From a virus (Duplodnaviria; Heunggongvirae; Uroviricota; Caudoviricetes), in the IMG/VR virus record IMGVR_UViG_2657245588_000005: a stretch of DNA of 44,413 nt; one strand, 5' to 3'. Below the pieces are notes generated by a model. It did not search any database. It saw only the letters and a program-made list of their open reading frames with translations, and was not told where the DNA came from. Position numbers and translations under genes: made by a program. Shown here piece by piece: positions 39,557 to 44,413 of this stretch (within the stretch, counting starts at the first letter, position 1; every line of letters begins with the position of its first letter).

Positions 39557-42500
39557 GTGAATATGGCAGTAAAGATTTCAGGTGTACTGAAAGACGGTGC
39601 AGGTAAACCGGTACAGAACTGCACAATCCAGCTGAAAGCAAAACGTAACAGCACCACGGTGGTGGTGAACACGGTGGCCTCAGAAAATCCGGATGAAGCC
39701 GGGCGTTACAGCATGGACGTTGAGTACGGTCAGTACAGCGTTATTCTGTTGGTGGAAGGATTCCCGCCGTCACATGCCGGGACCATCACCGTGTATGAAG
39801 ATTCCCGACCCGGTACGCTGAATGATTTTCTCGGTGCCATGACGGAGGATGATGCCCGTCCTGAGGCACTGCGCCGTTTTGAACTGATGGTGGAAGAGGT
39901 GGCGCGTAACGCGTCCGCGGTGGCGCAGAACACGGCAGCCGCGAAGAAGTCAGCCAGCGATGCCGGCACATCAGCCCGTGAGGCGGCAACCCGTGCGACT
40001 GATGCTGCAGGCTCAGCACGTGCAGCCAGCACGTCAGCCGGACAGGCCGCGTCGTCGGCTCAGTCAGCGTCTTCCAGCGCAGGAACGGCATCAACAAAGG
40101 CCACTGAAGCATCAAAAAGTGCTGCCGCCGCAGAGTCTTCAAAAAGCGCGGCAGCCACCAGTGCCGGTGCAGCGAAAACGTCGGAAATGAATGCCGCAGC
40201 ATCACAAAAATCTGCGGCCACTTCTGCATCCACCGCGACCACGAAAGCGTCAGAAGCTGCCACCTCAGCCCGGGATGCGTCGGCTTCAAAAGTGGCGGCA
40301 AAATCATCAGAAACGAGCGCTGCCTCGAGCGCCGGCAGTGCAGCTTCCTCGGCAACGGCAGCAGGAAATTCCGCGAAGGCCGCAAAAACGTCTGAGACGA
40401 ATGCGGATAACAGCGCACAGGCGGCAGCAGACTCACAAACTGCATCGGCAAACTCCGCGACAGCAGCCAAAAAATCAGAAACCAACGCGAAAAATAGTGA
40501 GGCAGCAGCAAAGGTCAGCGAAACCAACGCTAAAGCGTCAGAGAACAAGGCGAAAGAATATCTCGACAAGGTCGGGGGACTCGTCAGCCCGATGACGCAA
40601 TACGATTGGCCCGTTGTTACTGGTAATGAGTCTTTTTACATAAAGATCGCGAAACTTTCCGATCCCGGAAGCGGCAATTGCCATGTAACGCTAATGGTTA
40701 CTAATGCTGGTAACTACGGCTCCCCTTACGGAAACATTGACTTTATCGAGATCTCGGCGCGCGGTCTGCCTTCTTTGCTTAGTGCGGATAATGTTTCTCG
40801 TCATCTGAGTATACGCCGCTTAGGGTCAACCGGGCTGACCGATAACAACCAGATGCGTTACGGCCTGGTTAAAGGTGATGGCTTTATTGAGGTTTGGGCC
40901 TTCCAGCGCGCATTTATCAACGGCGCAAAGGTTGCGGTGCTGGCGCAGACGGCACGCCCGGAATTATACATTCCAGACGGATTTGTTAAGCAAACCGCCG
41001 CGCCTTCTGGATATGTTGAAGGCCCCGTTGTAAGGATTTACGACCAGGTAAACAAGCCGACTAAAGCAGATTTGGGTCTTTCTAATGCTATGCTTACAGG
41101 CGCTTTCGGTCTTGGCGGTAGCGGGATATCAACAAACGGCAAGATGAGCGATGTAGAGATCTTAAAAGCTCTGCGTGACAAAGGTGGTCATTTCTGGCGC
41201 GGTGATAAGCCGACCGGAAGCACGGCGACCATTTATAGCCACGGTTCTGGTATATTCTCGCGGTGCGGCGATACGTGGTCAGCGATCAATATCGACTACT
41301 CAACCGCGAAGATTAAGATCTATGCCGGCAACGATGCCCGGCTTAACAACGGGACTTTTAGCGTCAATGAGCTATACGGCTCGGCAAACAAGCCGTCGAA
41401 ATCGGATGTTGGACTTGGCAACGTAACGAACGATGCGCAGGTAAAAAAAACCGGCGATACAATGACCGGTGACTTGACAATCAAAAAAGGTACACCGTCA
41501 GTCTTCCTGCGGGCAGACAGTGGAGTCACCGCTTTGCGGTTTTATACTGGCGATAACACAGAGCGCGGCATAATCTATGCTGGTCCTAACACTGATTCGC
41601 TTGGCGAAGTTCGCATCAGGGCAAAGACAGCAGGGGGGACATCAGGAGGGGATCTTGTTGTTCGTCACGACGGGAGGGTTGAAGTCCGTGATCTCACAGT
41701 AGCGTATAAAATTAAAAGCAGAACGATTGAGATTGCAAATACCGACACTGACTCATCGGCAACTACGCTCAGCATCTATGGAGTACAGCACACGCCGTTG
41801 GTTTTAACGCGTTCTGGTTCTTCTGAAAATGTGTCCATTGGGTTTAAGTTAGACAACATGAACCCAAAGTATCTTGGAATTGATACTAATGGGGATCTGG
41901 CTTTTGGTGAGAGTCCTGATCAGAAACAAAACAGCAAATTGATCACGCAAGCGAAACTCGACAAGGGATTAACGATTGGTGGTCAACTGGCTTTCAAAGG
42001 TACGACAGCGTTTTCAGCCGTTGCTACGTTCAGTGCCGGGATAGCAGGAGCCATCGAGCCGGAAAACATTGACGGCCAGACGGTTAATCTTAACAACCTG
42101 ACCATCATCAAGTCAGATGCCGGGGCAGTTAAATACTATATTTGTCCATCCTCTGCAGGTGGTGCAAATATCACCAACAAGCCTGACGGCGTAACAGGTA
42201 ACTTTTTGCTCCGTGTTGAATCGACTCGTAAGGTTAGGGATTCAGATTATGCGAACATGCAAACGCTGATTAACAGCGACACAAAACGTATATACGTTCG
42301 CTTTGTTGTTAATGGAAACTGGACAGCGTGGAGTCAGGTTGTTGTTTCCGGATGGAATCAGGATGTAACCGTCAGGTCGTTAACCTCGACGACTCCATCA
42401 AAATTAGGTGGCGGGCGGATTGATGTGCTTGGAAGTACGTCAGATTATGGCAGCATGAATTGTACCGTTCGTGGTGTTGATAGCACTGGAACCAATTCGG

Positions 42501-43339
42501 CGTGGTCGGTAGGCACATCAGAAAGCACAGGCAAAAAGTTGTTCCTGAAAAACCACAGAAGCAGCGCTCAAGTGCTGTTAAATGGCGATGATGGAGCGGT
42601 TCAACTACTAAGTGGCACTGTTAACGGTGCTACAGCGCAGGCGCTAACCATCAACAAAGATGAGGTTAACTCAACTGCCGATTTAGTAATTAGAAAACAA
42701 ACAGGGACTGGCAATCGTTTTGCTTTACTTAATTCAGGTAATTCAGAACTGCCAGTTAGCATCGCGGTCTGGGGGTCAAGTGATCGACAAAACGTTTTTG
42801 AGGTTGCAACGTCTGCTGCGTATCTGTTTTATGCGCAAAGAACACCAGCAGGCCAGTTGTTTGATGTAAATGGCGCTATTAATTGCACAACGCTGAATCA
42901 GTCATCAGACCGCGACCTTAAAGACGATATTCGCGTTATCAGCGACGCGACGAAAGCAATCCGCAAAATGAACGGTTACACCTACACGCTCAAGGAAAAC
43001 GGCCTGCCTTATGCTGGCGTTATTGCACAGGAAGTAATGGAGGCGATACCAGAAGCTGTGGGATCGTTTACTCATTATGGTGAAGAGTTGCAAGGTCCGA
43101 CCGTTGACGGCAACAAGCTACGCGAAGAAACGCGCTATCTTAATGTTGACTACGCCGCCGTGACGGGTTTACTTGTTCAGGTCGCCCGTGAAACAGATGA
43201 TCGCGTTACCGCGCTGGAAGAGGAAAACACAACGCTACGTCAAAATCTGGCAACAGCAGGCACCCGGATCAGCACTCTGGAAAATCAGGTAAGCGAACTG
43301 GTTGCACTTGTCCGGCAGTTAACAGGAAGCGAACATTGA
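39557..43339 (+). CDS. Side tail fibre protein (lambda Stf-like N-terminus and Ala/Ser-rich repeats; C-terminal self-cleaving intramolecular chaperone domain, S74-like)
   Basis: 1260 aa; long Ala/Ser/Thr-rich repeat tract (protein about 110-340, DNA about 39900-40570); C-terminal 'SSDRDLKDDIRVISDATKAIRKMNGYTY...' resembles the endosialidase-type chaperone domain. Confidence 0.85.
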   Translation: MNMAVKISGVLKDGAGKPVQNCTIQLKAKRNSTTVVVNTVASENPDEAGRYSMDVEYGQYSVILLVEGFPPSHAGTITVYEDSRPGTLNDFLGAMTEDDARPEALRRFELMVEEVARNASAVAQNTAAAKKSASDAGTSAREAATRATDAAGSARAASTSAGQAASSAQSASSSAGTASTKATEASKSAAAAESSKSAAATSAGAAKTSEMNAAASQKSAATSASTATTKASEAATSARDASASKVAAKSSETSAASSAGSAASSATAAGNSAKAAKTSETNADNSAQAAADSQTASANSATAAKKSETNAKNSEAAAKVSETNAKASENKAKEYLDKVGGLVSPMTQYDWPVVTGNESFYIKIAKLSDPGSGNCHVTLMVTNAGNYGSPYGNIDFIEISARGLPSLLSADNVSRHLSIRRLGSTGLTDNNQMRYGLVKGDGFIEVWAFQRAFINGAKVAVLAQTARPELYIPDGFVKQTAAPSGYVEGPVVRIYDQVNKPTKADLGLSNAMLTGAFGLGGSGISTNGKMSDVEILKALRDKGGHFWRGDKPTGSTATIYSHGSGIFSRCGDTWSAINIDYSTAKIKIYAGNDARLNNGTFSVNELYGSANKPSKSDVGLGNVTNDAQVKKTGDTMTGDLTIKKGTPSVFLRADSGVTALRFYTGDNTERGIIYAGPNTDSLGEVRIRAKTAGGTSGGDLVVRHDGRVEVRDLTVAYKIKSRTIEIANTDTDSSATTLSIYGVQHTPLVLTRSGSSENVSIGFKLDNMNPKYLGIDTNGDLAFGESPDQKQNSKLITQAKLDKGLTIGGQLAFKGTTAFSAVATFSAGIAGAIEPENIDGQTVNLNNLTIIKSDAGAVKYYICPSSAGGANITNKPDGVTGNFLLRVESTRKVRDSDYANMQTLINSDTKRIYVRFVVNGNWTAWSQVVVSGWNQDVTVRSLTSTTPSKLGGGRIDVLGSTSDYGSMNCTVRGVDSTGTNSAWSVGTSESTGKKLFLKNHRSSAQVLLNGDDGAVQLLSGTVNGATAQALTINKDEVNSTADLVIRKQTGTGNRFALLNSGNSELPVSIAVWGSSDRQNVFEVATSAAYLFYAQRTPAGQLFDVNGAINCTTLNQSSDRDLKDDIRVISDATKAIRKMNGYTYTLKENGLPYAGVIAQEVMEAIPEAVGSFTHYGEELQGPTVDGNKLREETRYLNVDYAAVTGLLVQVARETDDRVTALEEENTTLRQNLATAGTRISTLENQVSELVALVRQLTGSEH

Positions 43340-43522
43340 TATCCTTCAAGCTCTGAAGGAGGCTGTTCCCGGTACGTTCAGACTGTTGTTGAGCTGGAAA
43401 TCGCAACGGAGGAAGAAACCTTGTTGCTGGAAGCCTGGAAGAAGTATCGGGTGTTGCTGAACCGTGTTGATACATCAGTAGCACCGGATATTGAGTGGCC
43501 TGCTGTCCCTGTTATGGAGTAA
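43340..43522 (+). pseudogene. Remnant of tail fibre assembly gene (tfa) 3' end
   Basis: In frame directly after the tail fibre stop; ends '...[31 protein letters not shown]', the conserved Tfa C-terminus; no credible start or RBS. Confidence 0.5.
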
Positions 43523-43625
43523 TCGTTTTGAGATACGCCGCATACACGTTGTATGCAATAACGTGCTGCGGCTTGGTAAATTTTAGCTAGTTTCAGCAGG
43601 AGACATAAAAAACTTCAATATAAGA

Positions 43626-44413
43626 TTAAGCATCACGTATTGCCAACCTGATTTTTGACTGATACCAATTGGGGCCTTCTGCAATTATTTCTTCCTCAAC
43701 ATGCATGATGGGATGCATTTCAATTTCAGAGTTTTTGACTTTTAGATCTAGTCCATATTTTTTTGAAATTTGTAAAACTTCATTTTTGAAATCCTTATCT
43801 GCGAAAGGTGAAATCCTTATTTCTTCCAACAGATTATTAAGAGATACAGGGACTAGTTTTCCCTTTACAGGTGGAGTGTTAAAGGTATTCTCTTGAAAAA
43901 TAGCTCTAAACTCTTTTTCGTGTTCGAAAGATGGTCTCTTGTTAAAGAATACATCTGATTCTGGATTGTATTGTTTTATCCAGAAATTTTTGACGTATTT
44001 TACGTGTTTTAATTGTAGTTTGTTTAGATTATTATTTTCAAGTTGGCTTTGGAGGTTTTTTTCTTTGATTTTATGACAACGCCTTTAGCGGGGTTTTTAC
44101 AATACAGCTTCCACATAGCTTCAGATTCATGTTCGTTACAATGCCAGCAACTTATATATGTCCTCTCGCTTATTTCCTTAGGTGTCTTTAAATTGAATGC
44201 CATGAAAGGCTCTAAGTCCATGCCGGCACCATGAGTAGCGCATAGTTTTTCCTGTGTCTCAATGAATTTTTTATAGCCAGTATGTCCCCAAGCAAATTCA
44301 CCTTCGAACGGATCTTCAAAATTTTTTGCTGAGCAAAAAAATAAAGCATTTTGTTCGAGTAACATAGAGAATTTCTCTATGTCAAGATATCGCCATATAT
44401 ACTCAGTGTGCAT
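43626..44413 (-). pseudogene. DUF2971-like protein gene split by a frameshift at a homopolymer (129-aa N-terminal ORF plus downstream open frame), in AT-rich cargo DNA
   Basis: ATG at 44411-44413; N-terminal 'YLDIEKFSMLLEQNALFFCSAKNFEDPFEGEF' and 'YISCWHCNEHESEAMWKLYC' resemble recalled DUF2971 motifs; the frame stops at 44024-44026, but a second frame is open from 44023 down to 43626; the T7 run at 44056-44062 is the likely shift point. Confidence 0.45.

Follow-up and report, generated by a model that had tools for sequence, protein, structure and literature searches.

The terminal cargo gene of the 44,413-nucleotide stretch of Caudoviricetes DNA analyzed here (IMG/VR record IMGVR_UViG_2657245588_000005, referred to below as the window) is a minus-strand DUF2971 gene whose reading frame is interrupted at a homopolymer. 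It is probable that the gene is a pseudogene of a single-gene prophage cargo encoding a DarT-like ADP-ribosyltransferase (ART), and that the interruption is a real, inherited change of the tract from T8 to T7 which reflects decay rather than switching.

Organization of the interrupted cargo gene

The cargo end of the window is AT-rich, as had been noted in a sequence-only reading of this DNA: the GC content was 0.348 for positions 43560-44413 against 0.509 for positions 1-43522, and in a sliding window it fell from ∼0.50 to 0.32-0.37 at the window end. Translation of the minus strand revealed an ORF of 129 codons (44413..44024) beginning with MHTEY and ending with KANLKIII and a stop codon. 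The -1 frame (reverse-complement frame 2) is free of stop codons from just 5' of a T7 run at 44056-44062 to a TAA at 43626-43628. This run, which is A7 on the coding strand, is the sole homopolymer at the ORF junction, and one base inserted in it generated a single ORF of 262 aa, within which the break falls at codon 119/120. But for a few substitutions, the restored ORF corresponds to the gene as it is annotated in E. coli genomes with an unbroken copy. The positions of the ORF, the second open frame and the tract were thus as first described, and the suggestion that one base restores a protein of the usual family size (∼262 aa) was borne out, the homologues being 254-270 aa in length and six clusters of them exactly 262 aa. 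The features of the region are as follows.

43626..44413, minus strand: the whole DUF2971 (predicted ADP-ribosyltransferase-like) gene, a probable pseudogene, restored to 262 aa by T8 (Pfam PF11185, PADLOC PDC-S31, intact orthologous alleles)
44024..44413, minus strand: 5' ORF of 129 codons plus TAA, comprising residues 1-119 followed by 10 out-of-frame residues (TSKANLKIII)
44056..44062: T7 homopolymer, the frameshift site; intact alleles have T8 here, and two genomes have T6
43626..44055, minus strand: 3' part in the -1 frame, residues 120-262 of the restored protein, ending at the TAA 43626-43628
43995..43997, minus strand: codon of Tyr140, invariant in a 63-sequence alignment and candidate ART motif II, 3' of the frameshift
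43911..43919, minus strand: codons of Glu166-Lys-Glu168, the invariant ExE, candidate catalytic glutamates of ART motif III, 3' of the frameshift
44335..44341: another homopolymer within the gene (plus strand A7, coding strand T7), unbroken here and 8 nt long in four related genomes
43523..43625: spacer from the tail-fibre-assembly remnant to the stop of the convergent DUF2971 gene, in which the GC content starts to drop

The start codon of the gene, ATG at 44413-44411, forms the final bases of the window, and in genomes identical to the window the sequence AAGGAG is placed 6 nt 5' of it. Judged from sequence, this ATG is the true start of the DUF2971 gene because of the exact 262-aa length of the six homologue clusters, with which the upstream AAGGAG agrees. 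The PGAP annotation starts the gene at M17, resulting in 246 aa for the intact and 113 aa for the broken allele, and this start is probably too far downstream. The window itself seems to be cut precisely at gene boundaries, with the stop of the integrase gene at base 1 and the ATG of the DUF2971 gene at 44413. No terminator-like site was called in the stretch of genomic locus L001 that is identical to the spacer 43523..43625.

On the other side of the spacer, the tail fibre is encoded by one unbroken ORF of 1260 aa in the window (39557-43339, plus strand), whose C-terminus carries in relatives the annotation of an S74 peptidase of the intramolecular-chaperone type. It is directly followed by a C-terminal remnant, 45 codons long, of a tail-fibre-assembly gene (43388-43522, plus strand), which looks like the recombination scar of a fibre-tip swap. 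In the closest complete genomes, PGAP splits the tail fibre into a partial N-terminal pseudogene and a separate S74-peptidase protein, and two genomes carry IS1 in the region. The genomes closest to the window are ES4 and EC28, with 99.7% identity over its last 8.4 kb. Comparison with the CP029973 prophage that occupies this integration site revealed a mosaic, in which only the tail and the cargo end could be aligned (95-100%), and the early and head regions of the window gave no alignment to that prophage.

Family, predicted fold and conserved residues

The restored protein matched Pfam PF11185 (DUF2971) over residues 100-170 with 29.2 bits (E 2.4e-6), above the gathering score of 22, and the match crosses the frameshift; the family assignment proposed for the gene was therefore confirmed by the HMM search. 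The DUF2971-like motifs ascribed earlier to the N-terminal ORF were substantiated in part, as the ORF is colinear with homologous family members, but by itself the 129-aa ORF gave no Pfam match at E≤1. The 3' fragment by itself gave a weak match to PF11185 under the threshold (14.6 bits, E 0.089). Four HMMs of the PADLOC entry PDC-S31 matched the restored protein, the best being PDLC04993 (E 9.6e-22, residues 80-233), along with PDLC04994 (E 4.2e-10), PDLC04991 (E 1.8e-7), and PDLC04990 (E 3.5e-6), and a match to phrog_34615 was also obtained (E 2e-30). A scan of both cargo proteins (DUF2971 and its neighbor DUF4236) against NCBIfam gave no match.

A search of 5.8 billion proteins identified 74 homologues. 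The top 25 were 254-292 aa in length, one truncated form excepted, and were colinear with the query from end to end over 90-100% of its length. The hosts of the homologues include Enterobacter, Pseudomonas, Herbaspirillum, Acinetobacter, and Pectobacterium in addition to metagenomes, and many of the proteins carry a precomputed PF11185 assignment or the name "DUF2971 domain-containing protein." The homologues being full-length, the alternative that the 129-aa form is the conserved product was not upheld; as far as the compared sequences tell, the protein of ∼262 aa and not the 129-aa form is the normal product of this family. Among 50,697 phage records, tblastn with the intact protein found one weak match, of 26% identity, in an Acinetobacter phage, and a nucleotide search of phages matched nothing but the tail-fibre-assembly remnant; hence, the gene is unreported from isolated phages.

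Structure prediction of the restored protein (pLDDT 92.8) showed the DarT ADP-ribosyltransferases to be its nearest folds, with modest Foldseek TM-scores to DarT-type structures (0.36-0.46). The model points to a member of the ADP-ribosyltransferase superfamily that would be DarT-like and belong to the H-Y-E clade. The link to DarT is at the level of the fold only, as PDB sequences, searched with a profile built from the aligned family, yielded nothing but a chance match (E 0.32). A 2025 survey predicted DUF2971 to belong to the H-Y-E clade of ADP-ribosyltransferases near DarT/AbiGi, noting a Tyr that is strictly conserved and an ExE motif (PMC12522546). The residues found to be invariant in the 63-sequence alignment were D34, C89, W90, W101, Y140, K159, E166, E168, R170, and P203; following the assignment in the survey (PMC12522546), we infer that Y140 represents ART motif II and that E166 and E168 represent motif III at the NAD+ site. 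In T8 alleles, the conserved Tyr and ExE are present on one polypeptide, and in the window allele they are out of frame with the start. The 129-aa product retains the N-terminal strands and should be catalytically dead, because Tyr140 and Glu166-x-Glu168 fall after the break.

Among characterized proteins, Aristaios, an abortive-infection system of Lactococcus that consists of a single gene, is a DUF2971 protein for which an ART fold has been predicted (PMC11381338). It has in common with the present gene the Pfam family PF11185, the single-gene organization, the predicted ART fold, and carriage on a mobile element. Aristaios, however, is 316 aa long and is carried by a Gram-positive plasmid (pUCCL641_199 of Lactococcus), whereas the restored protein has 262 aa and is encoded by an E. 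coli lambdoid prophage. Moreover, Aristaios is experimentally active, while the window allele is frameshifted and its subfamily is a defence candidate, and the documented relationship consists of the shared Pfam family and the fold prediction. The DarT structures (PDB 7omv, 7yk3, and 8baq) showed 8-13% identity to the restored protein, without a match at the sequence level. Compared with DarT, the restored protein has large helical insertions and an extra C-terminal part of ∼90 aa, and DUF2971 proteins contain an ExE where the literature describes a single catalytic Glu in DarT. No gene for a DarG macrodomain protein was found in any context examined (E. coli neighbors and homologue loci). Membership in DarTG was ruled out, the neighbors being the tail-fibre-assembly remnant and the DUF4236 protein, with no DarG.

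The PDC systems are 145 candidates predicted by "guilt by embedding" in BREX, DISARM or type I RM loci (bioRxiv 10.1101/2024.01.29.577857). The PDC-S31 entries were predicted from such embedding, whereas the gene described here is prophage cargo and is unembedded. A literature search for "PDC-S31" found nothing, and one for "DUF4236" returned one paper with the term in passing. For the intact form we infer an enzymatic activity, a target, and a role in defence, the anti-phage role of the PDC-S31 subfamily being that of a candidate.

The DUF4236 neighbor and the mobile cassette

Genomes identical to the window continue beyond its edge with a 211-bp spacer, a DUF4236 gene, a frameshifted DinI-like gene, tRNA-Pro, and yejM. 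It had been anticipated that a promoter and any partner genes would lie there; a candidate partner was indeed present in the DUF4236 gene, but the 211-bp spacer yielded no convincing promoter, and in a promoter and terminator scan of the cassette the counts were no higher than in shuffled sequences. The DUF4236 gene encodes 400 aa, has DUF4236 as its only Pfam match, is on the same strand as the DUF2971 gene and is intact, also in T7 genomes. It is present in 121 of 5426 E. coli genomes, the same count as obtained for DUF2971, and in each of the 23 E. coli loci read the two genes lie side by side in the same orientation. At least five integration contexts of the cassette were observed, namely, yejM/proL, prfC, Rac/ompN, thrW/proA, and a DUF3800 island, and the persistence of the adjacency in these contexts indicates that the two genes travel as one cassette in E. 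coli.

It is therefore conceivable that DUF4236 and DUF2971 form a two-gene system, e.g., a sensor or antitoxin with an ART effector, in which the frameshift disables or unbalances the pair, and the constant linkage and the intact state of DUF4236 in T7 genomes agree with such an arrangement. The DUF2971 homologues of 82, 80, 79, and 53% identity, however, have no DUF4236 neighbor. In Enterobacter soli, such a stand-alone homologue follows ogr at the terminus of a P2-like prophage; others are located in Pseudomonas prophage regions and in an island that also carries a fragment of an integrase gene, an Mrr-like gene, and a methylase/HD gene. DUF4236 was also without a PADLOC match, the two genes are separated by a 211-bp spacer with a hairpin, and both PDC-S31 and Aristaios are single-gene entries. 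On balance, a two-gene system appears rather unlikely, though it is a live rival, and a stand-alone effector is favored because of the orthologues lacking a DUF4236 neighbor and the absence of a PADLOC match for DUF4236; the constant linkage to DUF4236 in E. coli counts against the stand-alone reading.

Several further observations were made around the cassette. A 29-nt sequence, CCTTAAGAACCAG[A/C]CTATTATGGCTGGTT, is present just outside the window as direct repeats on the minus strand of L001 (9204-9232 and 11222-11250) that agree at 28 of the 29 positions. The terminator hairpin immediately 3' of tRNA-Pro constitutes one copy; the other, which is without a T-run, is placed in the DUF4236-DUF2971 spacer and may derive from a captured flank of proL or from a terminator that has degenerated. 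The repeat was rejected as an att site or true prophage end, as the spacer copy accompanies the cassette into other integration sites, and the integrase end has no third copy. In the four yejM-site prophages that were aligned, the DinI-like gene (L001 10768-11015, outside the window) has lost 1 bp, and all other annotations read for prophages at this site flag it as "frameshifted." It is intact in 4114, where a LexA-box-like CTGT-N8-ACAG is found upstream, and O25b:H4 has an additional 8-bp duplication.

A second, different DUF2971 gene of 318 aa, annotated as intact, is present in strain 51008369SK1 (L019 44365-45321). It is positioned just outside the integrase end of the proL prophage beside a recombinase fragment, and DUF2971 genes are thus found at both ends of this integration hotspot. 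In Pseudomonas nitroreducens (L018 2248-2910 and 6909-8651), a homologue of 51% identity adjoins a gene for a 580-aa SMC_N/AAA_15/AAA_23 ATPase and has another DUF2971 gene (220 aa) at a distance of ∼3 kb, in a prophage-like, defence-island-like neighborhood.

Tract alleles in E. coli and the fate of the gene

The DUF2971 gene is present in 121 of 5426 complete E. coli genomes, always as a single copy and always on the chromosome. Queries with the exact context of the tract identified T8 in 84 of these carriers, T7 in 34 and other alleles in three, two of which are T6. The T8 allele of strain WL164 reads through as ...KSKKKNLQSQLENN... and bears the RefSeq name "DUF2971 domain-containing protein," and one intact allele was found on 878 contigs. 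Comparison of T7 and T8 at homologous loci, suggested with the first description of the gene, thus showed an intact state in 84 genomes and the interrupted state in 34, which supports the inherited inactivating frameshift among the explanations then offered. The last 1074 bp of the window are 100% identical in 17 complete E. coli genomes, all T7, which originate from dogs, cats, humans, sewage, and grain in various countries.

The history of the tract was reconstructed from a 2.2-kb cassette aligned from 20 genomes, using a neighbor-joining (NJ) tree and Fitch parsimony. All sampled T7 and T6 alleles belong to one shallow clade, with ≤10 substitutions in 2.2 kb, and every one whose neighborhood was read is located in a lambdoid prophage at tRNA-Pro (proL)/yejM. 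The same clade also contains the T8 alleles of 4114 (beside prfC) and Ec1115 (at yejM). Six further genomes with 99.3% identity to the window, placed by identity and not by haplotype, have an intact T8. O25b:H4 (T7) and 4114 (T8) show no difference in the gene except the tract, and CT282 (T7) and Ec1115 (T8) are separated by one SNP besides the tract, located outside the gene. On the NJ tree, at least 3-4 changes in tract length were required, and the simplest history starts with one contraction in the ancestor of the yejM-site clade, followed by a change from T7 to T8 in the Ec1115 group and a step from T7 to T6. Short gene conversion between co-resident prophages could also be the source of the T7/T8 pattern. 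No length change was observed among the deeper T8 alleles sampled. The T7/T8 tract is, on these observations, supported as a mutational hotspot. Moreover, the E. coli run is A8, in comparison with the interrupted in-frame A7 (AAG AAA AAA ACA) of orthologues with 80-82% identity, and the longer, more slippery run is hence specific to E. coli.

Additional lesions were observed in relatives of the window allele. The second homopolymer (44335-44341) is expanded to 8 in PSJ-29, 65COLEC, DETEC-P169, and 98218, which are double-frameshift alleles present on two haplotypes and in two independent assembly pairs. In strain HCM-28C-2 (L029 4126-4823), which has a T7 allele, the DUF4236-DUF2971 spacer is interrupted by IS1A, a further erosion of the cassette. 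The pattern of lesions agrees better with decay or relaxed selection than with a regulated switch, because the OFF relatives have gained second frameshifts and IS1 and are accompanied by a frameshifted DinI-like neighbor.

The slippage-prone nature of the tract, one of the explanations proposed at the outset, was consequently upheld insofar as T6, T7, and T8 occur within one shallow clade, but high-frequency phase variation was disfavored. In Haemophilus and Neisseria, homopolymer length sets the phase-variable restriction-modification genes of "phasevarions" ON or OFF, and the present tract resembles these in being a mononucleotide tract in a coding region with length polymorphism among close relatives, as is expected of a contingency locus. 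The A8/A7 tract might accordingly be an evolved, selected, and reversible switch of a costly or toxic DarT-like defence gene, with T7 or T6 turning an abortive-infection enzyme OFF in the lysogen and T8 turning it back ON, and low-level -1 slippage might leave a trace of enzyme in the OFF state. Along with the elongated run of E. coli, this is consistent with the recurrent length changes among cassettes that are otherwise identical or one SNP apart, and the T7-to-T8 restoration in the Ec1115 group, which belongs to the most parsimonious history, is not predicted by pure decay and counts against it. However, the same T7 is shared by the 17 genomes across hosts and countries, among them five assemblies labeled Ec-050-T0, -T5, and -T20; the tract is constant among the deeper T8 alleles sampled, the OFF alleles have become pseudogene-like, and gene conversion could yield the same pattern. 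In contrast to phasevarions, the tract is 7-8 nt long, the host is mismatch-repair proficient, and the OFF state is stably inherited and followed by secondary lesions. Classical rates of phase-variation switching are not expected of an 8-nt A/T run in mismatch-repair-proficient E. coli. A selected switch is, in our judgment, improbable.

It is still less likely, and indeed doubtful in the extreme, that the T7 allele is down-tuned rather than dead, providing some full-length enzyme through a -1 slip on AAG AAA AAA A or through transcriptional slippage. With a -1 shift on the A run, the resulting protein would be identical to that of the T8 allele (KSKKKNLQ...), the 3' frame is stop-free with no other lesion in the window allele, and runs of A are known slippery sites. 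Nevertheless, the homologues and the 84 E. coli T8 alleles consist of one ORF each, the heptamer as read in frame, G AAA AAA, departs from the canonical X XXY YYZ, the 81 nt downstream are unstructured (MFE -3.4 kcal/mol, z -0.44 vs. shuffles), and no SD-like element is present in the sequence upstream of the tract. The runs from which efficient transcriptional slippage is known are longer than the seven bases found here. The site therefore does not show the features of programmed frameshifting, and a trace of full-length product may arise by incidental slippage. Finally, although homopolymers are the commonest site of long-read errors and scattered single-base deletions occur in some related assemblies (FXCREC004), an error of sequencing or assembly with T8 as the true sequence, the remaining option offered earlier, was excluded because exact T7 is found in 34 complete genomes from many laboratories, including the 17 identical over 1074 bp, and the exact truncated protein on 355 contigs as the 113-aa form of PGAP and on 138 as the 129-aa form, in assemblies from NCBI, ENA, and Logan.

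The overall evidence favors an inactivated member of a known family of defence candidates that has undergone ordinary pseudogenization. In its intact form, the gene would be a 262-aa single-gene "moron" of the PDC-S31 family, with an ART fold nearest to that of DarT, a DNA ADP-ribosyltransferase toxin. On phage infection, the enzyme may ADP-ribosylate nucleic acid or an essential factor using NAD+, which would block the replication of a superinfecting phage and benefit the lysogen. The loss of one base from the A8/T8 tract has produced T7, with translation predicted to end after 129 codons, before Tyr140 and Glu166-x-Glu168. The lesion is stably inherited in the prophage lineage at tRNA-Pro (proL)/yejM, in which the change at the hotspot tract was joined by more lesions in relatives.

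The gene occupies the classic moron slot past the tail fibre and would provide a worked example of the loss of prophage-borne defence candidates. The homopolymer knockout is present in ∼28% of E. coli carrier genomes, including, by the names in their records, clinically important strains of ST167 and ST131 type. Annotation-based defence censuses would miscount the locus, as the broken allele is named a 113-aa "hypothetical protein" by PGAP. Should the tract prove to be a true switch, E. coli would offer in it an unusual instance of a defence gene under homopolymer phase variation. The intact T8 allele, available in 84 complete genomes, offers a ready test of PDC-S31/DUF2971 defence in E. coli.
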